DNA of 24,000 nt from Candidatus Woesearchaeota archaeon. Its GTDB lineage: Archaea > Nanobdellota > Nanobdellia > Pacearchaeales > GW2011-AR1. Where the stretch lies: the NCBI GenBank assembly GCA_964354195.1, contig CAYGYN010000044.1, positions 10,655 through 34,654 of the forward strand, in the 5' to 3' direction. The translations under genes were made by a program, and so were the position numbers. A model generated the notes under the pieces. It did no database searches. It was not told where the DNA came from and saw only the letters and a list, made by a program, of their open reading frames with translations. Shown in pieces: positions 4,575 through 23,841 of this stretch (positions are counted from its first letter, which is position 1; each line of letters opens with the position of its first letter).

Positions 4575-7500
4575 TTAGTTCTTCTTCACCGCCCTCGAGT
4601 AAATTGTCCAGACATTTCTCTGGTCTCTGTCAACAAGTTCTGCAATCTCGCTGAATTTCATTCCTCTTCCCTTAAGATAGACTATTACCGCTTCAAGCAC
4701 AGTGTACTTTCTGTCTCCAAGTATCGAAGAAGGTATGAATATCTCTGTCTTTCCAACATATATCTTCTCCTTTCTCTTCTCCTGTGCTTTGTGGCAGGCT
4801 GTCCAGATTGTCCTCTCATTCCTGTTCAATGCAAGTGCAATCTCATGATAGCTCATTCCAAGATTCTCCTTCATGTACTTGCAAAGAGTTTCGAGAGCTC
4901 CAATTTCTTTGGAGAATATTGTAACTGGAATATTCATTCTTTCTGATTCACTAATCTCTTGAGTTTCTCTCTCAGAAATATCTCTTATAGCTTCCTCAAG
5001 CACCCCAACTTTTTCCAACTCATTTCTCTTTCTCAAATCAGCTTTTATCTTCAGCAGGCCCTCAACCAGGTTCTTTCTGCGTTTCTTCTTCCTATTTCTC
5101 CCACCTGCAAGAGCAAATCCAACAATAAGTATCTTGATTGTCCACGAGCCTTCATTCGCTGTTGAGTATGCCTGCCCGATGAGCTCGCTTCCCGCTTTCC
5201 TTATGCAGAAATAAAGTTGTTCCTGTCCTGTGCTCCCGTCATTGACTGTAAAGTTCCCGCGGGGCAAAAATGCGTCTGTTATGCTTACATAAGCAGAGGG
5301 AGATAATGTTGTTGCTCCGCATTCAGCATTTCCTCCAGTCGCAATTCCAACAGAAAAGTTATTTGCAAACAATGCAAGAAGACTATTGCTCTCTCCATTC
5401 AGGTTCGTTGAGTTTATCTGTATATTTCCAAGAGAGATATTCTGGTTTCCAGTGTTATTCAGGACAATAGGATCATTTGTTGCCGTCTGGTTCACAGCTC
5501 CAGGTGTCAATGAACTAAACGCAAGAGCGCTTGGCGAAGCCACAAATCCAGTAAGCGCATTAACAGTAAAGTAAGTTGAGATGTTTGTAGCCGCAGAACT
5601 GCTCAAGTCCGACACAGAAGCAGTTACATTCCATGCTCCTGCTCCATCAAACCAATACATTTGCACATTACAACTGTAATTGACATAATTTCCAATAGTG
5701 TTAATCTTCGCACAACTCAGATTAGTTCTAAGAGCCTCTCCATCTCTTGTAAAATTAGCCATTGCAGAAGAATCATTCAAATCCGCAGCACCATCGGCAT
5801 CATAAGCTGTGAAATTAACATTAACAGTCGTTGACGCGGGTCCTTCATTCAAATCCACAGCAGGAATTGCGCTCACATAGGTTATCTGAGGAGCTTGATT
5901 AACTGCTCCGAGGTTCACTTTTATAGTCCAGTTATCATTCGCAAATGCAGAATAGCTCTCGTTGTCTCTCGCTTCGCAATTCCAGAGATAAGTTCCATTA
6001 GCAATTCCATTCAATGGGAAAGATGCGCTCATTGATGAATTCGAAGAAAGAGAATTAGTATACATATTCACAATTTCCTGCTCACTTAATGCCCTGTTGA
6101 ATATTGCAACTTCATCTATTGCTCCCGAGAAAGGTCTTCTGCTTGTGCTTGACGTAGAAATAGGCCATATTCTTCCGTTTCCAACAACAAGAGGCAATGT
6201 AGACTGCAATATTGGTCCGCTGAAAGGATTATTTACCGGGAAGTTGGCGCCTGCTCCGTCCTGACTCCCATTCACATAAATAGACACAGTTGTTCCATTA
6301 TATCTCCCGACAACAAAAATCCACTGTCCCTCAGGGAATGTGCCGTTATAATTTGATTCTACCGCGCTGCCTGAAGAATTCCACACCCTGAAGAAAACAG
6401 AAGGTCTTGAACGGTCCACTGCAAGATAATAGCTTGATGAAGAAGCTGAAACAGCAATCTTGTCAAGAATTCTTGCATTTGCGTTATATGTATTGTTAAA
6501 GTTGTTTGCACTCGGCTTTATCCAGGCAGTCACTGTTATTGAACTGCCCATATTGCTCAAAGCAGGATTATCATTTGCATAAAGCGCATTTGGACTGCCA
6601 AAAATATATGCATTTGTTCCCGGGAAAACCCCTGTCTGATTCATTACAGGGCAGAATGACGACGATTCGTTTGAATTGCAATAAACATGATTGCCCAAGC
6701 CGGAAGAATCTGCATAATACGTCAAGTTCTCCCCCAAAAGAGAGTCATTGTTCATATGCAGCCAGAATACCATTGACGAATCATATGAATACTCGCCAGC
6801 ATATGCTATTCTTGTAAGATTCCAAACCCCGCTTGTATTTGTATAAAGGCTTATGTTAGACATTCTATTGACAGTTGTTGCATTGCACTGGAAAGTTATG
6901 TTGCCTGTTGTGCTTGTAGTGCCATTTGGAGGCGAAAGAAGACTTGTCCATATTTGTAAAGGGATAATTGTAAGATTATTCGAGCTCAATGTGCTTCCAT
7001 CCTGATACCCATCATTTGGCGTGACTTGGCAGCTCCAAATATCCCACAAAAATAGCTCGCTGCTGACAATAGTGTTTGTTTTATTTCGGTAAATAGTTCC
7101 AATCTCCTGCGAGGAGAGAGTATAATTAAATATAAGCACGTCATCTATCTCTCCATTGAAGAAATTATTCCAAGGCTGATGCCAGCCTATTCTTGTTCCA
7201 TTTAATCCAGTCAGTGGTGAACCGTTATAACTTCCTATCGCGGCAATACCATTAGAAGCATCAATTCCATCAACATAAATCCTAAAATTAGAAGAAGTTA
7301 CTGCCTGTCCTGATGTTGAATTGAAAACTCCAACTATGAAATGCCAGTTTCCATCATTCACAGTTCTGTTGGCATTAAGCCCTATCCATATTGCATCGGA
7401 ATCCAAGCCTATTGCAGGCACACCTGCTGAAGAATTTGTGCAATAGCTTCCTGGCACACTATTACAAAGAGGACCAATAGCCAAAGTTAAGCTCTTTCCA

Positions 7501-10500
7501 AGCCCGCTTCCCCTGTCATTGATTATAACTCCCTGATTTGCAGATGTCTTGACCCAAGCCGCCAAAGTATATTGCGTGGTTGAATTCTGAACAAAAGGAG
7601 AGATTATTGAACTATTTACCCCGTTGAACTTGTAATCTCCCTTCCCATCATATCCTCCTGTTGAGTTCCAGACAGCCCTGGAAACAACACCATTGTTCCC
7701 AAGCGAATAATCTTTTGTCCAAGTTGAAGTGCTTCCGCCCTCAAACGGCATATTAAGAACAATTATTGATTGGTTATTTAAGTACCAATTATAAATATTC
7801 TTCACTGAATCATTCTCCAAATCAGAAGTGCTTTGATTATAACATGTTAGATTCTCATTTACAGTATTAGTCCCGTAAGTCGAGCTCAAAATCGGTGGAG
7901 TTTGTGTTGGAGGGAAGTTTGGCGCAAGAGCATTGTAAGTTACATTGAAATAAAAGACATCCCAATAAGCAGTGCCTGTTCCAAATGCAGAGCCCCTAAG
8001 CTCTGATTTCATCTGGCTTCTGTTTCCTGAAGCGCCAAAGAAGTTTGAGCATTGCCAGTTCTTCAGAGCAGTCACATTTCGGCAGATTACCCCTGGATTT
8101 GCTGTTATTCCAGGGCAGGTGGAGTTGATTACTGTAAAATTAGTCCCGTTTTGATTGTCAATTGAAATATTGCAGTCAGAAGTTGAAGAAGTTGAAGCCC
8201 ACCATTCAAAGCAGGCAAGCACTTGTGTTATGTTTGAGCAGTTTGTATTTGTTGAATTGAATTCCATTATCTTCACTCCCCCATAACCTCCATTGTTGTA
8301 TCTCTGTGTCTCATAGAACCCATCATTGCATGTCAGCAAGTCAGCCCCTGAACCGCACGCGCTCGGATAAACGCCATCACAGGCAGAGCCGAACGAACCC
8401 TTGGCAGCCCTTTCCTCGGCAACACAGCTGCTCGTTCCCTCTCTAAATCCAGGGTCAGTTGTATTCATGGTGAAATTATAAGTTCCATCTGCAAGCAATG
8501 CGGCATAGGGTGTCCAAATCTCGTCAACGCATGTGCTTGTCGTAAAATTCCAGTTTATGCACTTCTCAAGGATTCTGAAACCTTCTGTTTCCTCGGGCAG
8601 AGACGTGCCATCCGCAACGATAGTAAAGTCAGTGTTATTGATTCGGGGATATACGGAGAATGAGAAATTCTGGGATGCATTTGCCTGGGAAATATCTATA
8701 ATGCTAGTTATGTTTGAGCTTAAATTAAACCCAAGAATATCAATTGTGTTGATAGTGTGATTAACAGGAGCGACATATATGTCATATATGCCTGTTGCAA
8801 GATTGACAGTGTGATTTATCATTGTCTGATTATAAACAACACTTGAAGTTATGTTTGTTATCCTGAGTGTTGCATTTATCCCATTATTCAGAGGGTCATT
8901 GATGGTTATTGTAAAAGTTACATTTTGTATAGGCGCCTGAGTCCCATTTCCAATTGTCAGGTTGTTTGAATTCTTTGTAATTCCGTCATTCTTCCCGTCA
9001 TTCGGAGTTACAGAACATGTCCAGTTCTGCCCTATAGAAAGTTCCTGGCTGACAATTAAATCTGTTCTGCTACTATACAATGCTTGAATTTGCTGTGCTG
9101 ATAAAGTTTTATTATAAATTCTTATGTCATCAATGCTTCCTGTAAATTTTTGTCCTGTCTGGTACTTGTCTCCAATACCCAGCCCATTTGTGTCATCATA
9201 CGTTCCGATTGGTCCATTAAGTGTTGAATTGCCAACTTCCACCCCATTGATATACAATCTCGCTATTGAGCCGTCATAAGTTCCTGCTGCAAAATACCAT
9301 GTATTATCATTGATTGTTTCTGAATTAACACGAGCTGCATCACTAGCATTAGTTACCTTAAATCTGATTATGTTGGTTGTCCCATTAAATTCAAAACCAT
9401 AAACCCCATATGGAGATATATCATTATTTCCATACCATACTATCTTGGCATAAGAGTTTTGGGTGCCGTTTCTTTTAAACCACGCTGCAATAGTTAGATT
9501 ATAAGTTGGTTCTAGATTATCAGAGCTGCCAACAGTTATAAGGTTAGTAATGCCATCAAAACGATAAGCTCCCTTTCCATTATATCCTCCTGTTGAATTC
9601 CATACAGCTCCTGAAACATTTCCATTGTTGCTTAACCCTGAATAATCCTTTGTGTAAGTTGAATTGCTTCCTCCCTCAAAAGGCATGTTCAAAACTTCAT
9701 AAGCCCTGTTATTCAATTTCCAACTGAAAATGTTCTTCACAGAATCCCCGTCAGCGTCATAGGTTGATTTATTGTAGCAAGTCAGGTTCTCACTTGTCAA
9801 ATTAGTCCCAAAAGTTGAATTCAAAATTGGCGTGCTTTGAGTGGGCAGGGTATTTGCGCAGTTATAAGTATATTCTGTGATATTCCCGAAAACAAATTGA
9901 AGAGTGTGATTGCCTCCAGTCAGAACCTTGCTTGTTTCATATCCGCTCTGATTGTCGCAAGTATAATTGAAATAGTGCACGCTGTTAGTTTCGTTAAGCC
10001 ATGTGTAATTCATGGTAGTATTCCCGCACCTTAACTCAAGGAACTGCAAGTCCCCTGACTCATTAAGATACCATGTTGTTCCATTCGATGCAGTTATTGT
10101 AAGATTTGCCTGTCCTGTTGTGTTAAATCCAACTGTCCAGTTTCCATCCACATATGGATAGCTGTAAAGATTGAGTATTATGAGCTGAAGTTCATATGTC
10201 TGGTTTGAGAGATGTTCAACATTCCACTCAATGTAATCAATCAAGCCATTCTCATTCATGTCAGCTGTTGTGAAATTAACGCTCTCTTTTGTTTCATTAA
10301 CCAGATGATAAAGTCTTATCATATCTGGAGAGGCTTCATAAGGCAGTTCACTAAAAGCAGTTATATCTGTATAGTTTAATTCATCAGGGGCTGAGATAGT
10401 TATAATTTTTCCGCTGCTTGTCTCTTCTTCAAAAGCCTCAGGCGCAGGAGTTTCGTAAGAAATCTCATACTGAGTTGCGTTATCCTCAAGACTGACTTCA

Positions 10501-11930
10501 ACAGGCTGCAAAGATTCATTTTGCTCCTCAGAAATAACTCTTCCTGTGAATCCTCTGCCAAATATGCCTTTTATGAAATCCCATAATCTGCTTATAATTC
10601 CATTTCCTTCGTTATCAGAAACAGCTAATCCTGTCACAAAAGCTCTTGCCTGCTCAGGCTTCTCAGTTTGTTCATCAATCTTGTTGACAGAGACATTCTC
10701 AGCCAAAGGCGGAAGCTCGATTGTTATTTCAGCAGGATTTTCGAGTTCAACAACCTTCTTCCATTTGACAGGCTGTCCCACTCTTATTTTCCCGACCTTT
10801 GAAGTGGTTATTGAGACATTTGTCTCGTTTGTTGTAATGTTCTCGGCAAGAGTCACATTCTCGGAGATAGTTAAATCTTCAAGAGGAACAAAAGGAATCA
10901 AGCCATATTCCAATCCAGTTAGTTTTAATCTTGCATTGTCAAGCTCAATCCTCAGGTTATAGAACTCTTTTGTGAGGTTTAATCCAGCCAAGTCGCAGGT
11001 TTCTTCACATATGCTATTAAACTCTCTCAGAGTTATTTCCTGAGTTGTTTCTTCCACAGAGGTTTTATTTTCTTCTGTTATATTTTCAGAAACAGGAGGA
11101 GTCACCTGCTGGGAAATGCTCTCGTTTTGAGGTGTTCCTCCTCCTGTTTGCTCTGAAGATGAAGGTTCTGAGGGCGTAGTTTCTGTAGTTGTTTCTTCTT
11201 CTGTTGGAATCGTTGGTTCTTGTTCTGATGGGGTTCCAGTTGGAGTTTCTGTAGTTGTTTCACTAGGTGTCTCAGTTGGAGTTTCACTTGGACTTTCTTG
11301 GGAGGATTCAGTTGAATCGGAGGAGGACGAATCTGAAGAAGAATCGGAATCGCCGGATGAATCTGATGATGAATCTGAAGAATCAGAGCTTGAATCAGAA
11401 TCAGATGATGAATCAGAAGAACCAGAATCTCCTTCCAATGCAAAACCAGTTATTGTGGTTCTTCTTTTTGCAATATTTGTGCTGTCAACCACAAGCAAAT
11501 TATCAAGATAAATCTTTATCTCTCCGTCTCCTGCAATCAATCCAGACAACTTGACAAAATCAAGTGTCCCATTTTCCTTAAGCGTGAATTCATAGCTCCC
11601 CGAATTATTGAAAACAACATCTGGAGTTTCAAAATAAGTCTTTGCATTTTCCTTTACCACAAACAAATTGAAGCTGGGACTGAAAAAGAAAAAGCTTGCT
11701 ATAAGAATTAAAAAAACCCCTATAAAACCAAAGCGAATCATAGTCTTCTTGTGCTTCTCATATTCCTCAAGAATTATCTGCTGCTGCCAGAGCCTGTGCC
11801 TATTTTCTTCTATCTGCTGTTTATGATAATCAGCAAGCGCCTGGTCTGGGTCATTAATGTATTTCCTAGAATCTTCTATTCTTCTTGAAAGTTCTTCGAT
11901 TAAAACTCTCGCTACGCGAGCATTTCCCAT
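4575..11930 (-). CDS. Giant (2,451 aa) two-pass surface protein: N-terminal cytoplasmic helix, TM, LamG-rich glycoprotein ectodomain, TM, cytoplasmic tandem-HTH tail
   Basis: A single uninterrupted 7,356-nt ORF. TTTATAAG lies 30 nt upstream of the ATG. Domain evidence is listed in the sub-features below. Confidence 0.9.
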   Translation of the reverse strand: MGNARVARVLIEELSRRIEDSRKYINDPDQALADYHKQQIEENRHRLWQQQIILEEYEKHKKTMIRFGFIGVFLILIASFFFFSPSFNLFVVKENAKTYFETPDVVFNNSGSYEFTLKENGTLDFVKLSGLIAGDGEIKIYLDNLLVVDSTNIAKRRTTITGFALEGDSGSSDSSSDSDSSSDSSDSSSDSSGDSDSSSDSSSSDSTESSQESPSETPTETPSETTTETPTGTPSEQEPTIPTEEETTTETTPSEPSSSEQTGGGTPQNESISQQVTPPVSENITEENKTSVEETTQEITLREFNSICEETCDLAGLNLTKEFYNLRIELDNARLKLTGLEYGLIPFVPLEDLTISENVTLAENITTNETNVSITTSKVGKIRVGQPVKWKKVVELENPAEITIELPPLAENVSVNKIDEQTEKPEQARAFVTGLAVSDNEGNGIISRLWDFIKGIFGRGFTGRVISEEQNESLQPVEVSLEDNATQYEISYETPAPEAFEEETSSGKIITISAPDELNYTDITAFSELPYEASPDMIRLYHLVNETKESVNFTTADMNENGLIDYIEWNVEHLSNQTYELQLIILNLYSYPYVDGNWTVGFNTTGQANLTITASNGTTWYLNESGDLQFLELRCGNTTMNYTWLNETNSVHYFNYTCDNQSGYETSKVLTGGNHTLQFVFGNITEYTYNCANTLPTQSTPILNSTFGTNLTSENLTCYNKSTYDADGDSVKNIFSWKLNNRAYEVLNMPFEGGSNSTYTKDYSGLSNNGNVSGAVWNSTGGYNGKGAYRFDGITNLITVGSSDNLEPTYNLTIAAWFKRNGTQNSYAKIVWYGNNDISPYGVYGFEFNGTTNIIRFKVTNASDAARVNSETINDNTWYFAAGTYDGSIARLYINGVEVGNSTLNGPIGTYDDTNGLGIGDKYQTGQKFTGSIDDIRIYNKTLSAQQIQALYSSRTDLIVSQELSIGQNWTCSVTPNDGKNDGITKNSNNLTIGNGTQAPIQNVTFTITINDPLNNGINATLRITNITSSVVYNQTMINHTVNLATGIYDIYVAPVNHTINTIDILGFNLSSNITSIIDISQANASQNFSFSVYPRINNTDFTIVADGTSLPEETEGFRILEKCINWNFTTSTCVDEIWTPYAALLADGTYNFTMNTTDPGFREGTSSCVAEERAAKGSFGSACDGVYPSACGSGADLLTCNDGFYETQRYNNGGYGGVKIMEFNSTNTNCSNITQVLACFEWWASTSSTSDCNISIDNQNGTNFTVINSTCPGITANPGVICRNVTALKNWQCSNFFGASGNRSQMKSELRGSAFGTGTAYWDVFYFNVTYNALAPNFPPTQTPPILSSTYGTNTVNENLTCYNQSTSDLENDSVKNIYNWYLNNQSIIVLNMPFEGGSTSTWTKDYSLGNNGVVSRAVWNSTGGYDGKGDYKFNGVNSSIISPFVQNSTTQYTLAAWVKTSANQGVIINDRGSGLGKSLTLAIGPLCNSVPGSYCTNSSAGVPAIGLDSDAIWIGLNANRTVNDGNWHFIVGVFNSTSGQAVTSSNFRIYVDGIDASNGIAAIGSYNGSPLTGLNGTRIGWHQPWNNFFNGEIDDVLIFNYTLSSQEIGTIYRNKTNTIVSSELFLWDIWSCQVTPNDGYQDGSTLSSNNLTIIPLQIWTSLLSPPNGTTSTTGNITFQCNATTVNRMSNISLYTNTSGVWNLTRIAYAGEYSYDSSMVFWLHMNNDSLLGENLTYYADSSGLGNHVYCNSNESSSFCPVMNQTGVFPGTNAYIFGSPNALYANDNPALSNMGSSITVTAWIKPSANNFNNTYNANARILDKIAVSASSSSYYLAVDRSRPSVFFRVWNSSGSAVESNYNGTFPEGQWIFVVGRYNGTTVSIYVNGSQDGAGANFPVNNPFSGPILQSTLPLVVGNGRIWPISTSSTSRRPFSGAIDEVAIFNRALSEQEIVNMYTNSLSSNSSMSASFPLNGIANGTYLWNCEARDNESYSAFANDNWTIKVNLGAVNQAPQITYVSAIPAVDLNEGPASTTVNVNFTAYDADGAADLNDSSAMANFTRDGEALRTNLSCAKINTIGNYVNYSCNVQMYWFDGAGAWNVTASVSDLSSSAATNISTYFTVNALTGFVASPSALAFSSLTPGAVNQTATNDPIVLNNTGNQNISLGNIQINSTNLNGESNSLLALFANNFSVGIATGGNAECGATTLSPSAYVSITDAFLPRGNFTVNDGSTGQEQLYFCIRKAGSELIGQAYSTANEGSWTIKILIVGFALAGGRNRKKKRRKNLVEGLLKIKADLRKRNELEKVGVLEEAIRDISERETQEISESERMNIPVTIFSKEIGALETLCKYMKENLGMSYHEIALALNRNERTIWTACHKAQEKRKEKIYVGKTEIFIPSSILGDRKYTVLEAVIVYLKGRGMKFSEIAELVDRDQRNVWTIYSRAVKKN
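4578..5099 (-). other. Cytoplasmic C-terminal tail of the giant protein (res 2278-2451) with two tandem sigma-70 region 4 / LuxR-like HTH repeats
   Basis: The tail starts with the stop-transfer cluster RNRKKKRRK and a charged helix. Repeat A (nt 4767-4898): ALETLCKYMKENLGMSYHEIALALNRNERTIWTACHKAQEKRKE. Repeat B (nt 4578-4706): YTVLEAVIVYLKGRGMKFSEIAELVDRDQRNVWTIYSRAVKKN. Both fit the pattern (hydrophobic)x(Y/F)xEIAxxLxRxxRT/NVWTxxxxA. There are no N-X-S/T sequons in the tail. Confidence 0.6.
5100..5150 (-). other. Second transmembrane segment of the giant protein (GSWTIKILIVGFALAGG)
   Basis: Short hydrophobic stretch immediately followed by nine basic residues in ten (RNRKKKRRKN). Coordinates were checked codon by codon against the reverse complement. 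Confidence 0.6.
5139..5894 (-). repeat. Membrane-proximal 252-aa two-domain module of the giant protein (res 2013-2264), paralogous to 14263-15036
   Basis: APQITYVSAIPAVDLNEGPASTTVNVNF...PRGNFTVNDGSTGQEQLYFCIRKAGSELIGQAYS...WTIKI aligns end to end with residues 54-311 of the 311-aa protein, ~60% aa identity by eye. Identical nucleotide runs include GTTGTTGCTCCGCATTCA and ATTCTGGTTTCCAGTGTT. Confidence 0.85.
5907..6947 (-). other. LamG (concanavalin-A-like lectin, Laminin_G_3-type) module 3, nested in a split beta-sandwich
   Basis: Res 1662-2008. Flank SPPNGTTSTTGNITFQCNA...; core SSITVTAWIKP...GQWIFVVGRYNGTTVSIYVNG...FSGAIDEVAIFNRALSEQEIVNMY; closing strand GTYLWNCEARDNESYSAFANDNWTIKV. Confidence 0.7.
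6966..7913 (-). other. LamG module 2 nested in a split beta-sandwich
   Basis: Res 1340-1655. PPTQTPPILSSTYGTNTVNENLTCYNQSTSDLENDSVKNIYNWYL...LNMPFEGGS...YTLAAWVK...GNWHFIVGVF...FNGEIDDVLIFNYTLSSQEIGTIY...WSCQVTPNDGYQDGSTLSSNNLTI. Confidence 0.75.
8031..8573 (-). other. Cys-rich central domain of the giant protein (12 Cys in ~180 aa)
   Basis: Res ~1120-1300. Cys at 1124, 1134, 1169, 1184, 1192, 1201, 1231, 1240, 1253, 1272, 1283 and 1294 by my indexing. No family recognised. Confidence 0.5.
8961..9848 (-). other. LamG module 1 nested in a split beta-sandwich
   Basis: Res 695-990. LPTQSTPILNSTFGTNLTSENLTCYNKSTYDADGDSVKNIFSWKL...LNMPFEGGS...AYRFDG...LTIAAWFK...NTWYFAAGTYDGSIARLYINGVEVG...FTGSIDDIRIYNKTLSAQQIQALY...WTCSVTPNDGKNDGITKNSNNLTI. 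The first ~100 aa are ~65% identical to module 2 by eye. Confidence 0.8.
11145..11429 (-). repeat. Low-complexity acidic linker: Ser/Asp repeats (res 168-207) then Thr/Glu/Pro repeats (res 208-262)
   Basis: GDSGSSDSSSDSDSSSDSSDSSSDSSGDSDSSSDSSSSD followed by ESPSETPTETPSETTTETPTGTPSEQEPTIPTEEETTTETTPSEP. The DNA is an imperfect GAATC(N)GA(N) tri/hexanucleotide repeat. Alternative-frame ORFs here are artefacts. Confidence 0.85.
11673..11738 (-). other. First transmembrane segment of the giant protein (IRFGFIGVFLILIASFFFFSPS)
   Basis: Res 65-86. It is preceded by a 64-aa charged helical segment ending in KHKKTM (positive-inside rule), and no A-x-A cleavage site follows. Confidence 0.65.
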
Positions 11931-11991
11931 ACTTATCTTGTATGTAAATATACTTATAAATCTATTGGTAATACCTATTATTTATGTAATA
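11928..11991 (-). repeat. Promoter-plus-start-codon repeat copy R1 (functional promoter of the giant gene)
   Basis: CATACTTATCTTGTATGTAAATATACTTATAAATCTATTGGTAATACCTATTATTTATGTAATA. It contains the ATG (11930-11928) and the TATA (11953-11960). About 85% identical to R2, which lies 95 bp upstream. Confidence 0.8.
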
Positions 11992-12022
11992 ATATGAGAT
12001 AGGCTATTTGCCAATTAACATC

Positions 12023-12087
12023 CATACCTATCTTGTATGTAAAAGCCCTTTATAAATTTATTGATAATACCTATTATTTATGTAATA
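12023..12087 (-). repeat. Promoter-plus-start-codon repeat copy R2 (duplicated promoter driving a 15-codon micro-ORF)
   Basis: CATACCTATCTTGTATGTAAAAGCCCTTTATAAATTTATTGATAATACCTATTATTTATGTAATA. It has TTTATAAA at 12049-12056 and an ATG at 12025-12023. That ATG opens MDVNWQIAYLILLHK* (12025..11978). Confidence 0.8.
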
Positions 12088-12141
12088 GCCATGCAAAGAG
12101 TTATTTAACAGTTAGATAGCACAAAACACTAAAAATCGAAA

Positions 12142-13656
12142 TCACTGCTCAAATTTTTCAAGATATTCAGAAGCCTTGCCATCCACAACCATTACTTCCT
12201 TTATTGAATGCACATTGCTGTGCCTCACAAGCGCGTTCTTTTTGTTCAAGTTCTTCGCAATGTGCGGCTCAAGCGCAATCAGCCAGCCATATATCTTGTT
12301 ATCCTCAAGATAAACTTCACTCACATGCCCTAGTTTGTTCCCATTCATCCCATATACCCGCAAATTCATTGCATCTGTGAGCCCATTCAGTTTTCCCTTG
12401 TGCTTTCTCTTCGCTCCAGCCCCAATAACTCCTCTCTCAAGCAGAGGAATCAGATATCTCACCAGAACAATTGAAATAAGACTAGCAAGCAATGCAATCA
12501 CAAGCATTATCCAGAACAAGTCTATCCAGTTTATTGCAAATACAGTTGTTACAGGGGCAGGCTTTTCCTCCTGTACTTCATCAACATCGCACCTGCCATT
12601 CTGATTTGCATCAAGACAGCATTCTAATCCTCGGGGTATGTAAGGAGAACTGCAGCTTGCGCACGCAATGATTCCTGTCTCGCCTTCACTCTGATTAATG
12701 CATTCAATTATCTGAGGCTGGGAATAATTTGTCTGATAAACTACCCTGGTGCCTCCGCCTCCACCGCCGCCAACAGTCACTATCACAACAGGTTCAGGCG
12801 ATTCATCAGCAGAATAATTCGAAAATCCAGTTACTCTGAATCTTAAATTTCCGGATGAATAATCTTCTTTGGTGCAAATGCTATCTGGGCAAACAACGCC
12901 ATTCCTCAATATTCTTGGATTTGTGAAATTCAATCCATAAAGCCATAATGTTGAAGAAACATTGAAATTAGGCAGCTCGTCAGCATTTAATTCAATCCTA
13001 TTGAATAATATATTCACATTGTTCTCAACGTCAACCACTCCGTCAAAATTATGGTCCTTATCATCAGTCACATTCAAACAATCGTCAAACTCTATTTTTC
13101 CATAATTAACATCTTCAAGAATAGTGTTGCAGAAATTCTGCAAATCTTCAAATGTATATGTATAGAAATCTGTTGAGCCTCCGCTGAAAGATGTCTTGAA
13201 TTCCCCCAGGTAGATAATTCTCAACAGCGTTGTATTGACAACAAACTGCAATCCCTCGCTAGTCTGCCCCTGGCTGTTGTTTGCATAAACCCTGATAATA
13301 TGGGTTCCATCTCCAGCAGTGAAATGAAGAGAATGGGGTATATTTGGGATATAGGTGTCTGCTGAGCCATCAAGAACATACCACGCATCATAAGCGCTGT
13401 AAACACTATAATTCAAAAGCAAACTTTCATTTATGTAAGTTCCGTTCTTAGGGGAATAGATAATTACCCCTGGAAGGCTTACAACATAAACCCTCAAATC
13501 AACAGGCTGTTCTGTCGCCTCACCTGTAACCGAAACGCTGCCAGTTATGCCTGCGCGCGAGCCATTCTCAACAACCAATATTGCAGATGCATAAGAACTG
13601 GAAATAATTAAAAAAACAATTGCTAAAAACAGCGATAAAATCAAATACCTCTTCAT
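12142..13656 (-). CDS. Type-I surface glycoprotein with C-terminal TM helix and cytoplasmic PRC-barrel domain
   Basis: Start refined to the ATG at 13656 (MKRYLILSLFLAIVFLIISSSYASA signal). The ORF-track start is a TTG 4 codons upstream, and an ATTTAAAT box lies 30 nt upstream of the ATG. The ectodomain is sequon-rich with a Gly7 linker and a Cys cluster (CINQ...CASCSS...CCLDANQNGRCD). TM helix LFWIMLVIALLASLISIVLVRYLIPLL (12439-12519). The 98-aa tail LNGLTDAMNLRVYGMNGNKLGHVSEVYLEDNKIYGWLIALEP...VMVVDG (12181-12390) fits the PRC-barrel pattern. Confidence 0.85.
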   Translation of the reverse strand: MKRYLILSLFLAIVFLIISSSYASAILVVENGSRAGITGSVSVTGEATEQPVDLRVYVVSLPGVIIYSPKNGTYINESLLLNYSVYSAYDAWYVLDGSADTYIPNIPHSLHFTAGDGTHIIRVYANNSQGQTSEGLQFVVNTTLLRIIYLGEFKTSFSGGSTDFYTYTFEDLQNFCNTILEDVNYGKIEFDDCLNVTDDKDHNFDGVVDVENNVNILFNRIELNADELPNFNVSSTLWLYGLNFTNPRILRNGVVCPDSICTKEDYSSGNLRFRVTGFSNYSADESPEPVVIVTVGGGGGGGTRVVYQTNYSQPQIIECINQSEGETGIIACASCSSPYIPRGLECCLDANQNGRCDVDEVQEEKPAPVTTVFAINWIDLFWIMLVIALLASLISIVLVRYLIPLLERGVIGAGAKRKHKGKLNGLTDAMNLRVYGMNGNKLGHVSEVYLEDNKIYGWLIALEPHIAKNLNKKNALVRHSNVHSIKEVMVVDGKASEYLEKFEQ

Positions 13657-13679
13657 AAAAATATCCAAGCAACTATATT

Positions 13680-13687
13680 ATTTAAAT
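13680..13687 (-). promoter_or_regulatory. TATA-like box (ATTTAAAT) for the 13656 CDS, possibly an internal promoter
   Basis: Lies 30 nt upstream of the ATG at 13656, in the 44-nt gap after the upstream gene. Confidence 0.4.
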
Positions 13688-13700
13688 CTATATTCGAGAG

Positions 13701-14258
13701 TTAATTTTGTTCCTGCTTCTTTCTCTTGTTCAATGCCACAACGATTATTGCCATGACAAGAATTGCAGCTCCGACAACAAGATATAATGTCCAGTTTGTC
13801 TTTTCAACAGGAATCACTGACTCTTCTTCATTGACCACAAAAACAGGCAGTCTTGTCGAGATGCTGCTGCCTATTCCTACAGCACCGCCAGTCAATCCGC
13901 TCTGCACTGTCTTGAAAGTAAACTCAACAGGATAATTTCCACCTATCTTGCTATCGCTCGGCACGCTGATTCTCACATTCATTGCAGCTTCTCCGCCCGC
14001 AGGCACATTATAAGCCTTGTTTTCATCAGTTATCGTCGTAACATCCGAGCCCTGAGAGACTTCAGCATCCAAAACAACAGGATCCACTCCCGCATTGTTC
14101 TTCAGCACAATCTGCAAATCAACTGTTTGTCCAGGTGCAATCCTCAATGGATTCTCAGACCAATAAGGCGTTGAGACTGCAAATGCATAAACTCCATTTA
14201 TCATTAAGATAGTCACAACTAACAATATTCCCGCTGCGATATAGTTTTTAGTTTTCAT
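13701..14258 (-). CDS. Small type-I surface protein: signal peptide, single Ig-like (CARDB/DUF11-like) domain, C-terminal TM anchor
   Basis: Signal peptide YIAAGILLVVTILMINGVYAFA. Beta-rich domain (PGQTVDLQIVLKNNAG...YNVPAGGEAAMNVRISVPSDSKIGGNYPVEFTF). Anchor WTLYLVVGAAILVMAIIVVAL followed by NKRKKQEQN. The ATG lies 1 nt after the upstream stop, indicating an operon. Confidence 0.8.
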   Translation of the reverse strand: MKTKNYIAAGILLVVTILMINGVYAFAVSTPYWSENPLRIAPGQTVDLQIVLKNNAGVDPVVLDAEVSQGSDVTTITDENKAYNVPAGGEAAMNVRISVPSDSKIGGNYPVEFTFKTVQSGLTGGAVGIGSSISTRLPVFVVNEEESVIPVEKTNWTLYLVVGAAILVMAIIVVALNKRKKQEQN

Positions 14259-14259
14259 T

Positions 14260-15195
14260 TTATGATATCTTCAACGTCCATGCTCTAGAGGCTGAGTCTG
14301 ATGAATATGCCTGTGCTGTAAGTTCAGAACCAACTTTCTTTATGCAGAAGTATACTTGCTCCTGCCCCGTTGAGCCGTCATTGACTGTGAAATTCCCTCT
14401 TGGTAAAGTCGCGCTGCCTATCGCAGTGTATACTGAAGGAGCCATGGTTGTTGCTCCGCATTCAACAGGAGGAGAACCCCCAGTAGTTACGCCAACACTG
14501 AAGTTATTGGAATAGATTTTTCTATTGGCATCTAACTCTCCAAGAAGGTCAGTGGTATTCAACTGAACATTTCCTGCTGTAATATTCTGGTTTCCAGTGT
14601 TGTTTAATACAATTGGATCATTTGTAGAAGTCTGATTCACGCTTCCAGGAGTTAACGATGCCCATGTCAGAGAAGCCGGCGAAGATACAAATCCAGTAAG
14701 CGCATTAATTGTGAATGTAGTAGAAACATTTGAAGCAGCAGAATTGCTTAAGTCCTTCACAAATACAGTCACATTCCAGGTTCCTGAGCCATCAAACCAG
14801 TACATAGGCACGCTGCAAGTGTAATTAACTGTAGTCGCAGTACTGCCCGCATTGGTGCATGAAACAGCCCTTACAACTTCTCCAGCCCTTGTAAAGTTAA
14901 CCATCGCAGAACTATCATTCAAATTCCCTGCCCCGTCAGCATCACTTGCCACGAAGCTCATAACTACTGTAGTGCTTGTAGGCCCTTCATTCAAATTCAC
15001 CGCGCTTATAGCAGAAACAGAAGCAATTGTTGGAGCAGTGTTTGATATTGTGACATTAACATTTACGCTTTGCTGTGTTACTTTCCCAGTTATCTTTCCA
15101 AACCAGTCAAACATCCCGGCAGACGCAAATGACGAGACTAATAATACAGAAGCTAGAACCACAACAAAAACAAGCGTTCCTCTTTTCGCATTCAT
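14260..15195 (-). CDS. Secreted two-domain protein, paralog of the giant protein's membrane-proximal module (no anchor)
   Basis: Signal peptide MNAKRGTLVFVVVLASVLLVSSFASAG. Residues 54-311 align with giant-protein residues 2013-2264. The protein ends (WTLKIS*) exactly where the giant protein enters its TM helix. TTTATAAA lies 29 nt upstream of the ATG. Confidence 0.85.
   Translation of the reverse strand: MNAKRGTLVFVVVLASVLLVSSFASAGMFDWFGKITGKVTQQSVNVNVTISNTAPTIASVSAISAVNLNEGPTSTTVVMSFVASDADGAGNLNDSSAMVNFTRAGEVVRAVSCTNAGSTATTVNYTCSVPMYWFDGSGTWNVTVFVKDLSNSAASNVSTTFTINALTGFVSSPASLTWASLTPGSVNQTSTNDPIVLNNTGNQNITAGNVQLNTTDLLGELDANRKIYSNNFSVGVTTGGSPPVECGATTMAPSVYTAIGSATLPRGNFTVNDGSTGQEQVYFCIKKVGSELTAQAYSSDSASRAWTLKIS
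14263..15036 (-). repeat. Paralogous copy of the 5139-5894 module
   Basis: See 5139-5894. Same orientation, ~9.1 kb away, with nucleotide similarity clearly visible by eye. Confidence 0.85.
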
Positions 15196-18397: not shown

Positions 18398-19249
18398 TCA
18401 CAAGAAATTTATGCAAGTCGCACTGCAGTTCATATACCCGCCGGTGTCTCCTCCGCCATTATAATAGGCATAAACTTTCCATGCACCACTATCTTGATAA
18501 ACTTTGCATTGCCAAATATCGTGCTTGCGGTCTGTGACATCATCATATAATTTAAAGGACTCTTGAGTTATTGCGCAGAAATCCCAATCTCCAGTGCAGT
18601 TAGTTATTGTTGCGCATCCTGAAGCGCAACCATTTGTGGCATTAGCCGAAAATGTTGCTCTAACCGGCGCTGTCCCTCCCCCTCCTCCAGATAATGCACA
18701 ACATTGCACAGCAGATATGTAAAATCCTCCGCAACCGTTTATAGAATATCTATATTTAACCCCAGTTACAACCTTTCCGCTCGGGCAGCTGCTCCATGTT
18801 AGGCTGCTTACTGCTGCATCGCATCCATTGACAGCAACTTCTTGGCAATCAGAAGTAGTTATTGGCCCGCCAGTTCCATCAGCAGGCCACGCATTCCTGC
18901 AATCGCTGCCAATGCAGACTCCTGCTGCTTTCATGAAATTAGTTGTGCTCACATTTCCAATGTTATAATTAATATCGCTCCCACTCTGACTCCATAAACT
19001 TCCTCCGCCTCCAGGAGGCCATGCTGTCCTGCAATCCATTGTTCCTGAGTTGTTCATGCAGAATCCCGCAGCAATAATATTGGTAGGCACTCTGACGCTC
19101 CAGTTCATCTCATCAACCGAATGCCCAAACACAGCAGGATTTGCAGGAACAGAATTATAAGCATAAACCCCCACAAATCCAATCAGAAATAATCCGATTA
19201 TCAATAAAGAAATAAAGTACTTCCTCTCCAAATTAACCTCTATTTTCAC
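18398..19249 (-). CDS. Signal-anchored Cys-rich secreted protein, MKIEVNL-leader family member P1 (GTG start)
   Basis: The leader (V)KIEVNLERKYFISLLIIGLFLIGFVGVYAYNSVPANPAVFGHSVDEMNWS is homologous to P2 and P3. Two C-x(3-8)-C-R-x-AWP motifs, Gly4-5 linkers and 17 Cys. An extra C-terminal Cys-rich domain follows AVQCCAL. Confidence 0.8.
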   Translation of the reverse strand: MKIEVNLERKYFISLLIIGLFLIGFVGVYAYNSVPANPAVFGHSVDEMNWSVRVPTNIIAAGFCMNNSGTMDCRTAWPPGGGGSLWSQSGSDINYNIGNVSTTNFMKAAGVCIGSDCRNAWPADGTGGPITTSDCQEVAVNGCDAAVSSLTWSSCPSGKVVTGVKYRYSINGCGGFYISAVQCCALSGGGGGTAPVRATFSANATNGCASGCATITNCTGDWDFCAITQESFKLYDDVTDRKHDIWQCKVYQDSGAWKVYAYYNGGGDTGGYMNCSATCINFL

Positions 19250-19298: not shown

Positions 19299-20048
19299 TT
19301 AGCTTATAACAATCTTGCAGCAATATCCCCATGCATGCATATAGGAGCCGTCACTCAATCTTCTTGCTCTTACATAATTAGGAGTTACTTCATATTCTGT
19401 ATTTTCCCTTTCATTGTTTGACTTCAGGAAATGGAAGCCTGCAACAGTCTTGCCAATTGCAGAGCAATTTGCAAGTGACCATTGGGGAAGAGGCTTATTC
19501 CCGCCGTCAACCCATGTGCAATTCTGATAAGATAATGTTCCGCCGTTCAGAGAAGGCCAGCTTGTTTGGCAGTTTCCTGAAAGGCAAATTTGTGACGAGT
19601 TTACTGTGCCTGATGTTGCAACAAGGCTTTCTGCTTTAATCCCTCCAGAAACAACAAGTTTTGTGTCAGGGCTTGAAGTGCCAATTCCGATGTTTCCCGT
19701 TGAGCCATTAATCACAATTCTCTCAACATGCGCGACCTCATCCCCGATAATCAAATTACCATTATTATTTGCATAGAAAGAAAACTTCTTGCCGGTGTTT
19801 TCGACAAAAATTCCTGCAAATCCTGTCCCATTTATATGCAATTTTGCCCCAGGAACACGAGTGCCTATTCCCTCGCTCCCGTTTACCAAGATATTTGAAT
19901 TAACAGACTGTCCCCAATCCACTTCATTAGGTGAGTGCCCATAAACCTCTGGGCTGTAAGCATAAACTCCTACAAAACCAACAATAACTAATCCAATTAG
20001 AATGCTAAAAACCAAAAACTTCTTATTCAACTTTACCTCTATTTTCAT
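19299..20048 (-). CDS. Signal-anchored tail-fibre-like repeat protein, MKIEVNL-leader family member P2
   Basis: MKIEVKLNKKFLVFSILIGLVIVGFVGVYAYSPEVYGHSPNEVDW. GIGT repeats (GIGTRVPGAKLHINGT, NIGIGTSSPDTKLVVSGG). ICLSGNCQTSWP motif. Ends GYCCKIVIS. An ATTTAAAT box 30 nt upstream overlaps the dys stop codon. Confidence 0.8.
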   Translation of the reverse strand: MKIEVKLNKKFLVFSILIGLVIVGFVGVYAYSPEVYGHSPNEVDWGQSVNSNILVNGSEGIGTRVPGAKLHINGTGFAGIFVENTGKKFSFYANNNGNLIIGDEVAHVERIVINGSTGNIGIGTSSPDTKLVVSGGIKAESLVATSGTVNSSQICLSGNCQTSWPSLNGGTLSYQNCTWVDGGNKPLPQWSLANCSAIGKTVAGFHFLKSNNERENTEYEVTPNYVRARRLSDGSYMHAWGYCCKIVIS

Positions 20049-23072: not shown

Positions 23073-23810
23073 TTAAACAATGCTTATCTTGCAGCATCTT
23101 ACTTTAATCCAATCAAGATGTGTCTCGCCAGAACTCCCCTGCCCACTTCCGGTTGCAATCTCACCATTGGGGCATAACCACTCCTTTACGCATGCACCGC
23201 ATCTTACTGCCCCGACCCAATGGCAAGTCGTATAATTGATGAAAAGTGTCCCTACACTGCCGCCACCGCCAGCCGGCCATGTTGTTCTGCAATCTGTTCC
23301 AATGCAAACTCCTGCTGATTTAAGATAATTAGTTGTGCTTATGTTTCCGTTCACTTCCAATTTTTCAACAGGGGTTAAAGTCCCAATACCCACATTGCCC
23401 TCGTCTTTCTGCAAGATTACATTTCCCCCGCCAATTCCCGAACTGCTCAAATATAAATTCTGGTATGTTGCTGTACCAAACGCCTTTATTTCATTGCCTG
23501 TAATTGAGATGCTTGGAGCACCTGTTAATCCTTGTTCATGAAATCCAATAAGTGCGCTGTTTACCAGCATGCTCCCATTGACATCCAAGTTTGTTCCAGG
23601 ATTTGATGTTCCAATGCCCATTCTTCCATTAATACTGACATTAGCTTTAATCATCTTGCTCCAATCCATCTCATCAATCGAGTGCCCGAAAACAGCAGGA
23701 TTCGCAGGAATTGAATTATACGCATAAACCCCTACAAATCCAATAAGAATTAATCCAATAAGTAAGCTAAATACCAAGAATTTCTTGTTAAGATTCACCT
23801 CTATTTTCAT
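23073..23810 (-). CDS. Signal-anchored tail-fibre-like repeat protein, MKIEVNL-leader family member P3
   Basis: Start refined to the ATG at 23810 (TTTAAATA 29 nt upstream; the track start is TTG). MKIEVNLNKKFLVFSLLIGLILIGFVGVYAYNSIPANPAVFGHSIDEMDW. Repeats MGIGTSNPGTNLDVNGS and NVGIGTLTPVEKLEVNGN. AGVCIGTDCRTTWPAGGGGS motif. Ends VRCCKISIV. Confidence 0.8.
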   Translation of the reverse strand: MKIEVNLNKKFLVFSLLIGLILIGFVGVYAYNSIPANPAVFGHSIDEMDWSKMIKANVSINGRMGIGTSNPGTNLDVNGSMLVNSALIGFHEQGLTGAPSISITGNEIKAFGTATYQNLYLSSSGIGGGNVILQKDEGNVGIGTLTPVEKLEVNGNISTTNYLKSAGVCIGTDCRTTWPAGGGGSVGTLFINYTTCHWVGAVRCGACVKEWLCPNGEIATGSGQGSSGETHLDWIKVRCCKISIV

Positions 23811-23841
23811 ATCCAAGAAAGACAAGTCTATTATTTAAACT

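Follow-up and report, generated by a model that had tools for sequence, protein, structure and literature searches.

Comparison with described systems

Bacteria and archaea both possess transmembrane transcription regulators, among them ToxR, TcpP and CadC; they were surveyed by Demey et al. 2023 (PMC10269533), where DPANN archaea are not mentioned. The subject of the present analysis is a gene of Candidatus Woesearchaeota archaeon at positions 4575..11930, minus strand, of a stretch of 24,000 nt (GCA_964354195.1, contig CAYGYN010000044.1, positions 10,655-34,654 of the forward strand), hereafter the window, which encodes a very large predicted surface protein with a helix-turn-helix (HTH) tail, hereafter the giant. 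Like ToxR, TcpP and CadC, the giant appears to join in one polypeptide a domain outside the cytoplasm, a membrane crossing and a DNA-binding domain on the cytoplasmic side, and it would act on DNA from the membrane. A recognised DNA-binding domain and at least one transmembrane (TM) helix (residues 65-86) in a single chain are features that it shares with the transmembrane transcription regulators. However, whereas those three proteins carry an N-terminal OmpR-type winged helix and a single TM segment, the giant has a C-terminal pair of HTH domains resembling sigma factor region 4, two predicted crossings with both ends probably inside the cell, a second crossing of only 7-14 residues and, across its family, ectodomains that measure from 1,000 to over 5,000 residues. 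Membership of the ToxR/CadC family was considered and rejected, as the Pfam model Trans_reg_C was not matched and the tri-helical HTH lies at the C-terminus.

ArnR and ArnR1 of Sulfolobus acidocaldarius (PMC6396743) are archaeal membrane-bound one-component regulators of surface-structure genes, a role that we propose for the giant as well. Unlike the giant, ArnR has its HTH at the N-terminus and TM helices at the C-terminus and lacks a large ectodomain; no sequence relation between the two was detected in our analysis. In RsgI-type anti-sigma factors, which bear carbohydrate-binding ectodomains, and in the extracytoplasmic function (ECF) sigma/anti-sigma systems controlled by regulated intramembrane proteolysis (RIP), sensor and sigma factor are separate proteins. 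The giant resembles these systems in that a lectin-like outside module would be coupled across the membrane to a module of the sigma region 4 type, and its start (N-terminus in, single TM helix, C-terminal side out) recalls anti-sigma topology. It differs in being one chain, in which neither an anti-sigma domain nor sigma region 2 was matched.

To our knowledge, archaeal RNA polymerase does not use sigma factors. Castelle et al. 2021 (PMC8204110) reported 'sigma-70' genes (fam00359) as prevalent in Woesearchaeota, found no anti-sigma factors and called the mechanism unclear. These genes probably encode the same HTH module as the tail of the giant; fam00359 was not found in the supplements of Castelle et al. 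2021. While they were treated there as sigma factors, the module described here is a tandem HTH of region 4 only, usually fused to giants and tied to a specific candidate operator, which probably explains the earlier 'sigma-70 factors without anti-sigma factors' in DPANN genomes. EnfR (TON_1525, PDB 8hnp), a DNA-binding repressor of Thermococcus onnurineus (PMC10570040), is unlike the tail a soluble protein of 152 residues that has only one HTH and whose C-terminal part is folded differently. Finally, Notch, CD44 (CD44: PMC2150876) and similar adhesion receptors of eukaryotes also link a large adhesion-type ectodomain through the membrane to an intracellular domain acting in transcription, but they require proteolytic release and nuclear entry and are not homologous to the giant. 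In our literature searches, descriptions of the giant fusion architecture, of its operator motif or of the split operon were not found. Woesearchaeota and Pacearchaeota are abundant, uncultured archaea of small genome size, and their cell surface is the interface with hosts.

Architecture of the giant protein

The gene is a single uninterrupted ATG open reading frame (ORF), and its parts, which are listed below, were all present as described in a first-pass annotation made from the sequence alone. AlphaFold2 (AF2) models are quoted with their predicted local distance difference test scores (pLDDT).

4575..11930, minus strand: giant gene, 2,451 codons plus stop
11739..11930, minus strand: N-terminal, probably cytoplasmic segment, residues 1-64 (12 K/R and 12 D/E, last residues KHKKTM), a short variant of the ~90-residue basic helical N-terminal domain of the family
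11673..11738, minus strand: TM helix 1 or signal anchor, residues 65-86, the top hydrophobic peak of the protein (Kyte-Doolittle 19-mer 2.37; family median 2.6)
5145..11672, minus strand: ectodomain, residues 87-2262
about 11031-11438, minus strand: acidic S/D/T/E/P stalk within the ectodomain, about residues 165-300
9084-9548 and 6102-6437, minus strand: best-located LamG modules, a third stretch being reported without a position
8049-8561, minus strand: 12-Cys region of the ectodomain, exactly 12 Cys between residues 1124 and 1294
5145-5900, minus strand: conserved membrane-proximal two-domain module D1-D2, paralogous to a 311-residue protein encoded upstream
5100..5144, minus strand: short hydrophobic segment, predicted to cross the membrane, residues 2263-2277 (WTIK-ILIVGFALAGG), WTIK being the last strand of D2
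5070..5099, minus strand: polybasic, predicted stop-transfer run, residues 2278-2287 (RNRKKKRRKN); 3-12 K/R in the family, median 7
4938..5069, minus strand: helical linker, residues 2288-2331 (AF2 helices at model positions 27-47 and 51-76, pLDDT 64-78)
4761..4937, minus strand: HTH repeat 1, residues 2332-2390, recognition helix RTIWTACHKA (Sigma70_r4_2 at 2353-2382; pLDDT >92)
4578..4748, minus strand: HTH repeat 2, residues 2395-2451, recognition helix RNVWTIYSRA (Sigma70_r4 sub-threshold, tail residues 138-173)

A Pfam scan of the giant matched Laminin_G_3 with an E-value of 1.7e-65 in three stretches. The ectodomain contains 116 N-X-S/T sequons, against 49.9 +/- 5.9 in shuffled sequences, and there are none in the N-terminus or the tail. 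With Laminin_G_3 domains, a signal anchor and this sequon excess, the giant has the features of a LamG/concanavalin-A-like surface adhesin. Domain D1 was modelled by AF2 as beta-rich (pLDDT 61-91). At the C-terminal side, WTIK, ILIVGFALAGG and RNRKKKRRKN follow one another in this order and are succeeded by 164 residues, so that the tail counted from its first basic residue comprises 174 residues (2278-2451). The second hydrophobic segment reported in the first-pass annotation is thus there, but by hydropathy it is weak (best Kyte-Doolittle 19-mer 1.0, 15-mer 1.67, 11-mer 2.49) and unlike a classical TM helix.

The tail carries two sigma region 4-like HTH domains in tandem

When the tail alone was compared with Pfam, Sigma70_r4_2 was matched in two stretches at 35.3 bits (gathering cut-off 25.7) and HTH_23 at 25.7 bits (cut-off 24.6), and the two repeats proved 34% identical to each other (E 1e-9), in agreement with the two HTH-like repeats that had been read from the letters. 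In an AF2 model built on an alignment of 17 sequences, pLDDT was >92 across the entire HTH pair and dropped in the helices of the linker. In a Foldseek comparison with the PDB each repeat superposed locally on ECF sigma region 4 at 0.5-1 A; the matches included region 4 of SigR (5fgm, 0.7 A over 45 columns), region 4 of SigE in complex with -35 DNA (2h27) and several mycobacterial ECF sigma factors (<1 A). The best local structural match among archaeal proteins was EnfR (8hnp), of which 42 columns with 38% identity superposed at 0.5 A. R116, R119 and W122 of repeat 1 and R181 and R184 of repeat 2 are invariant across the family alignment (A1); these recognition-helix residues are equally conserved in fused tails and in soluble homologues.

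A sigma factor was considered and rejected, as Sigma70_r2 was not matched in Pfam and only region 4 is present. The NCBIfam sigma models likewise matched the tail at their region 4 end only, with 15-28 bits against cut-offs of 43-323, and NCBIfam holds no model for the family itself. The tail is a tandem pair of sigma-70 region 4-like HTH domains and not a sigma factor. A DNA-binding-type fold, as proposed in the first-pass annotation, is upheld by the above-threshold Pfam matches, the AF2 model and the local superposition on sigma region 4.

A family-specific motif flanks the TATA boxes of the giant gene

Alignment of the regions upstream of complete giants revealed a repeated element of 17 bp. 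The motif, TACATAnATAATAAGTA, occurs four times in the window, every copy within 155 bp 5' of the giant gene and flanking its TATA boxes. A search with TACATANATRRTARGTA allowing up to two mismatches returned four matches in 24 kb, where 0.07 would be expected by chance, all of them at 11930-12084 on the strand of the gene. The region 11931-12141, singled out earlier as a target for binding assays with the tail, thus holds four copies of a motif specific to the family. The promoter is laid out as follows.

11930..12084, minus strand: promoter and candidate operator region, a tandem duplicate of [site A - TATA - site B] with A-to-B start spacing of 42-43 bp
12068..12084, minus strand: candidate operator copy 1 (TACATAAATAATAGGTA), 5' of TATA box 1, 0 mismatches
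12049..12056, minus strand: TATA-like box 1 (TTTATAAA), part of the upstream copy of the module, read from sequence
12025..12041, minus strand: candidate operator copy 2 (TACATACAAGATAGGTA), a motif match, followed by a probable remnant ATG and 15-codon ORF
11972..11988, minus strand: candidate operator copy 3 (TACATAAATAATAGGTA), 5' of the functional TATA box, 0 mismatches
11953..11960, minus strand: TATA box (TTTATAAG), first T 30 nt 5' of the A of the ATG
11930..11946, minus strand: candidate operator copy 4 (TACATACAAGATAAGTA), in the interval between TATA box and start codon, its last base being the A of the ATG

The upstream module at 12025-12084, minus strand (site - TATA - site - ATG), keeps its own ATG and an ORF of 15 codons (MDVNWQIAYLILLHK), which is probably a remnant.

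In 29 of 34 promoters of the family, 30-31 nt separate the ATG from the first T of the TATA box, and most loci have their last motif copy ending at 0 or -1 nt relative to the ATG. The distance from TATA box to transcription start in archaea is about 26 nt. Taken together, these distances indicate a leaderless mRNA, with the last site at -17 to -1. The TACATA half-site often adjoins the TATA box itself, and the preferred start-to-start spacings of the motif are 52, 33-34 and 42-43 bp. The consensus from 238 distinct sites is T-A-C-A-T-A-n-A-T-A-A-T-A-A-G-T-A with uninformative flanks, although this matrix is partly circular, the sites having been gathered with the pattern itself. A motif copy between TATA box and ATG cannot be the TATA box of the giant gene, a possibility that was therefore set aside.

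The motif is almost exclusively tied to genes encoding the HTH module. In 1.16 Mb of loci selected by their tails, 119 motif matches fell into 55 groups, and essentially every group with several copies lay no farther than a few tens of nt from a giant ATG or just 5' of a stand-alone tail gene, the few exceptions being at contig ends or overlapping a called start. The motif as a general promoter element was rejected, since essentially all other ORFs of the 1.16 Mb lack it. A reverse test, in which metagenome contigs were searched for the exact two-site pattern first, yielded 54 instances: 39 preceded ORFs with the family N-terminal domain, 7 preceded stand-alone tail genes, 5 lay at contig ends and 3 were classed as 'other'. 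Hence 46 of the 49 instances with a downstream ORF belong to family genes, and a 47th, at locus L105 among the 'other', has an N-terminus of the window type as judged by eye. The outcome is a widespread candidate regulatory unit, consisting of a DNA-binding module and a 17-bp operator, which could be tested with recombinant protein and synthetic DNA and without cultivation.

Some further genes carry the motif or the tail in other settings. At L113 (5840-5908) and L124 (5291-5359) a double operator stands 5' of a hydrophobic ORF of 92 codons (MERVNILISIVKTLVKKL...) that matches neither family domain and may be a decayed N-terminus or a further member of the regulon. Four loci (L056, L067, L077 and L078) have second-type stand-alone tail genes directly after a topoisomerase-like gene of 736-745 codons (MYELVITEKPNAAKRIAEALADGKP...). 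At L056, L067 and L077 a second tail-only gene lies 3-7 kb away; that of L056 differs in its operator, which is a variant (TACTTAAATAATAAATA), and in its first recognition helix, which is divergent.

Family and distribution

A search with residues 2240-2451 returned 43 proteins, mostly fragments on short contigs, with the same parts in the same order: after the terminal portion of a beta-rich domain (...YFC...YST..EGxWTI[KR]), a short hydrophobic stretch, a polybasic stretch and a linker lead on to the HTH repeats, which number two, though some members have four. Among the 43 are a few soluble proteins of 160-190 residues devoid of the hydrophobic segment. When a profile of the HTH pair was run against 1.84 billion cluster representatives, 2,212 clusters were matched at E <= 1e-3 and 892 at <= 1e-30, many of them at the extreme C-terminus of proteins of 1,000-5,919 residues. 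Although no other giant adhesin wired to a DNA-binding-type domain had been recognised in the first-pass annotation, the tail is no rarity, being the common output module of a very large Woesearchaeota/Pacearchaeota family. The suggestion that the tail might recur with other ectodomains was borne out: the ectodomains vary (LamG, Big_13 or no Pfam domain) while the tail is constant.

The N-terminal domain of the family, presumed cytoplasmic, is basic and about 90 residues long (MGRTRLAKA...ISY..Y.E...K..GR...EWI.YYD.YI..CE) and is followed by a strong TM helix; the 64-residue N-terminus encoded in the window is nearly identical to that of protein P0102. Neither the N-terminal 105 residues nor a typical family N-terminus had any match in Pfam or NCBIfam. 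A scan of one genome per species found the tail in 375 places, nearly all in metagenome-assembled genomes (MAGs) labelled Woesearchaeota, Pacearchaeota or Nanoarchaeota, and about forty complete giants of 1,200-3,300 residues were read from the species-representative loci. A scan of viral contigs gave zero confirmed relatives of the tail. The neighbours in the window are archaeal as well, with GatD/GatE-like genes, TrmB and deoxyhypusine synthase.

Several members depart from this pattern. The family members of L002, L036, L040 and L061 are in MAGs labelled Patescibacteria, Bacillota or 'bacterium', and are probably mis-binned contigs, given the otherwise exclusive Woesearchaeota/Pacearchaeota distribution. 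Two giants are interrupted inside the tail region or shortly ahead of it, that of L001 by an in-frame TGA (9938-9940) aligned to a Leu of the window protein and that of L058 by a stop after the linker (about 8014-8165); these interruptions could be sequencing errors, pseudogenes or natural splits. The ectodomains of two related giants contain a Hint/intein-like insertion (CYDSETEIFTDKGWKLF...KHKVYTY...IYGVDVENDIVLV) enclosing a low-complexity stretch, one within L001 5159-9940 (about residues 600-900 of the protein) and the other in the ORF of L072 starting at 5681.

Operon partners and split operons

Three conserved genes follow the giant on the same strand in 60-68 of 80 loci. In the relatives these encode a protein of about 310 residues that duplicates the last two ectodomains of the giant and ends in WT[IL][KQ]I, an NEW3/CARDB-like protein of about 185 residues with a normal TM helix, and a membrane protein of about 560 residues. 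In the window the trio lies upstream of the giant instead, at 12142-15195.

14260..15195, minus strand: 311-residue secreted paralogue of D1-D2, ending ...AWTLKIS with neither hydrophobic segment nor tail; homologues directly 3' of the giant in most of the 80 loci
13701..14258, minus strand: 185-residue partner with signal peptide, NEW3/CARDB-like domain, normal C-terminal TM helix of 20 residues and a KRKK run; in 68 loci
12142..13668, minus strand: 508-residue partner with signal peptide, ectodomain, TM helix and cytoplasmic PRC-barrel (22.8 bits, cut-off 21.2); in 60 loci

The L001 counterpart of the 508-residue partner ends shortly after its TM helix.

Two loci, L075 and L079, have a split arrangement. 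Here the HTH module is a separate soluble protein of 180 residues. Its gene heads the operon, has 3-6 operator copies 5' of it and overlaps the start of the giant gene, and the same trio follows. The giant of these loci keeps the N-terminal domain, the first TM helix and the terminal ectodomains and ends after D2 with ...SWTIKVDPQN or ...AWTIQVI, the hydrophobic run, the polybasic run and the tail all being absent. The occurrence of fused and split forms indicates, as a Rosetta-stone relation, that the HTH module is functionally part of the operon either way, and offers a natural experiment on the value of membrane tethering to a transcription factor.

Membrane topology

The two ends of the giant are likely both cytoplasmic, as the first-pass annotation had proposed from charge and sequon distribution. 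This view draws on the basic N-terminus followed by a strong TM helix, on the polybasic run, on the sequon and Cys pattern, on the soluble homologues and on the split operons. By the positive-inside rule, a run of K/R is a strong cytoplasmic retention signal. Family-wide, the ectodomains have 5.03 sequons per 100 residues, 2.23x the expected density, whereas the tails have 0.58, or 0.9x; Cys residues number 1.08 per 100 in ectodomains and 0.26 in tails. The stand-alone soluble homologues of the tail have no signal peptide. Since the hydrophobic and polybasic segments vanish when the tail is a separate gene, this element would serve only to connect ectodomain and tail.

Standard topology predictors would probably miss the second crossing, which as a biophysical oddity is relevant to the topology rules of membrane proteins. 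An archaeosortase-type sorting signal (PGF-CTERM and relatives) was also considered for the hydrophobic run and was rejected, as a PGF-like motif was not found, the run has 7-14 residues and 120-377 residues follow the basic cluster.

Proposed mechanism and alternatives

We favour the reading that the giant is a membrane-tethered, operon-specific autoregulator, and put our confidence in this explanation as a whole at roughly 0.62. According to this reading, an N-glycosylated surface protein of a DPANN archaeon of the Woesearchaeota/Pacearchaeota type would be held in the membrane by a normal N-terminal TM helix and an unusually short hydrophobic segment with its polybasic run, and both ends would lie in the cytoplasm. 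The tail would act as a pseudo-dimer within one polypeptide and recognise the asymmetric 17-bp operator, an imperfect palindrome (TACATA-N5-TAAGTA). Copies of the operator lie on either side of the TATA box in the promoter of the giant gene itself, which should be leaderless, and one copy fills the gap between TATA box and transcription start. Tail binding there would most likely block transcription factor B (TFB) or RNA polymerase and so repress the gene or, in most relatives, the entire four-gene surface operon. Repression is suggested by the positions of the operators at the B recognition element (BRE)/TATA box and in the TATA-to-start interval. The regulator would be made last and tethered, stoichiometric with the finished surface protein and alongside it, so that expression could track the amount of finished giant in the envelope. 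The membrane-tethered transcription factor of the first-pass annotation is in our opinion substantially strengthened.

A more far-reaching version, which we regard as tentative and on the whole doubtful, is that of a homeostat of surface coverage, in which each inserted giant would add a tethered repressor for its own promoter, transcription would read the occupancy of the envelope and not a cytoplasmic concentration, and the short crossing would itself be the regulated element. All paralogous giants of a genome having one operator and one set of recognition helices in common, they would then cross-repress one another. Were this so, alternative ectodomains might be displayed in a mutually exclusive or switched fashion, and the crossing, with a mode of 8 residues, could be pulled out or cleaved upon loading or loss of the ectodomain.

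Several observations weigh against the autoregulator reading. The crossing segment measures 7-14 residues, with a mode of 8, in 115 distinct family sequences, the family median of its best 19-mer hydropathy is 1.09, where the first TM helix has 2.6, and an AF2 model of D1-D2 with the crossing segment gave pLDDT <50 across the segment and is thus uninformative on its conformation and topology; how so short a segment spans the bilayer is unexplained. In P0013 and some other members about 8 residues separate the polybasic run from the first HTH, which would leave little steric room for binding DNA at the membrane and argues for release. The Foldseek search against the PDB gave zero global matches at E <= 1e-3, and a PDB sequence search with the tail profile returned nothing below E 0.08, the sequence similarity to EnfR being sub-threshold only. 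Moreover, we infer the link between tail and motif from their co-occurrence in sequence and the sign of regulation from the position of the operators, and a copy 5' of the TATA box could activate.

A first alternative is the contact-sensor reading of the first-pass annotation, in which, with architecture and operator unchanged, the tethered tail would be inactive until proteolysis within or next to the membrane, upon engagement of a ligand or host surface by the ectodomain or upon its damage, frees it to reach the operator. The very short linkers of some members, a hindrance to DNA binding at the membrane, speak for it. Helix-breaking residues are typical of substrates of intramembrane proteases, and Pro or Gly is found in 57% of the 115 distinct crossing segments, mainly among the last four residues; the segment is also too short for a stable helix. 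The stand-alone and split-operon forms show the module working untethered, and the lectin- or adhesin-like, variable ectodomains are what would be expected of sensors. However, no protease genes linked to the operon were found in the window and the loci examined, no conserved cleavage motif was found apart from the domain-end WTI[KR], and our analysis yielded nothing that bears on ligand or host contact. We consider a signal-released factor possible but rather unlikely.

As for a non-regulatory tether, the tail, helped by the polybasic run that adjoins the HTH pair, would bind the operator or DNA generally and hold operon or nucleoid at the membrane, for instance to couple transcription, translation and insertion of a very long secreted protein, and would not set the level of transcription. 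This would suit cells so tiny that DNA is presumably always near the membrane, and the operator is located at just the gene whose product needs co-translational insertion. In the split form, however, the module is soluble and yet keeps the same operator, and tethering is therefore not essential to its role. The copies also occupy the BRE/TATA box and the TATA-to-start interval, where sites of archaeal repressors are typically found. This explanation is accordingly improbable.

Less probable still is an extracellular tail, in which the run would not cross the membrane, the first TM helix would be the sole anchor, the HTH-like pair would have a role at the surface and soluble paralogues alone would bind the motif. 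In its favour, more than 95% of members have a second segment whose hydropathy stays under the thresholds commonly used for TM helices, the preceding domain has WTI[KR]I as its final strand and AF2 predicts no helix for the segment. Against this, the hydrophobic and polybasic segments are present in the fused form only and gone from split genes, the 3-12 K/R are a textbook signal of cytoplasmic retention, the tails lack the sequon and Cys enrichment of ectodomains, and the DNA-recognition residues are conserved to the same degree in fused tails as in soluble homologues.

Finally, an artefact in which two genes were fused by frameshift or assembly error, a worry raised in the first-pass annotation, can draw on the two interrupted relatives (the in-frame TGA in L001 and the stop in L058) but is effectively refuted and was rejected, since the window ORF has neither stop nor frame change and the uninterrupted fusion is conserved across the family in dozens of independent genomes and metagenomes.

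Other genes of the window

Three paralogous secreted or anchored proteins are encoded on the minus strand of the window at 18398-19249, 19299-20048 and 23073-23825. They share the N-terminus MKIEV.L..K(F/Y)...GL..(I/V)GFVGVYAY and have Cys-bearing C-terminal parts; the product of 18398-19249, the one of the three that was scanned, had zero Pfam matches. On the plus strand, 463-1479 encodes a protein of 338 residues in which a TM helix at the centre separates an N-terminus with weak resemblance to STAS from a thioredoxin domain (Pfam E 1.6e-12) at the C-terminus.

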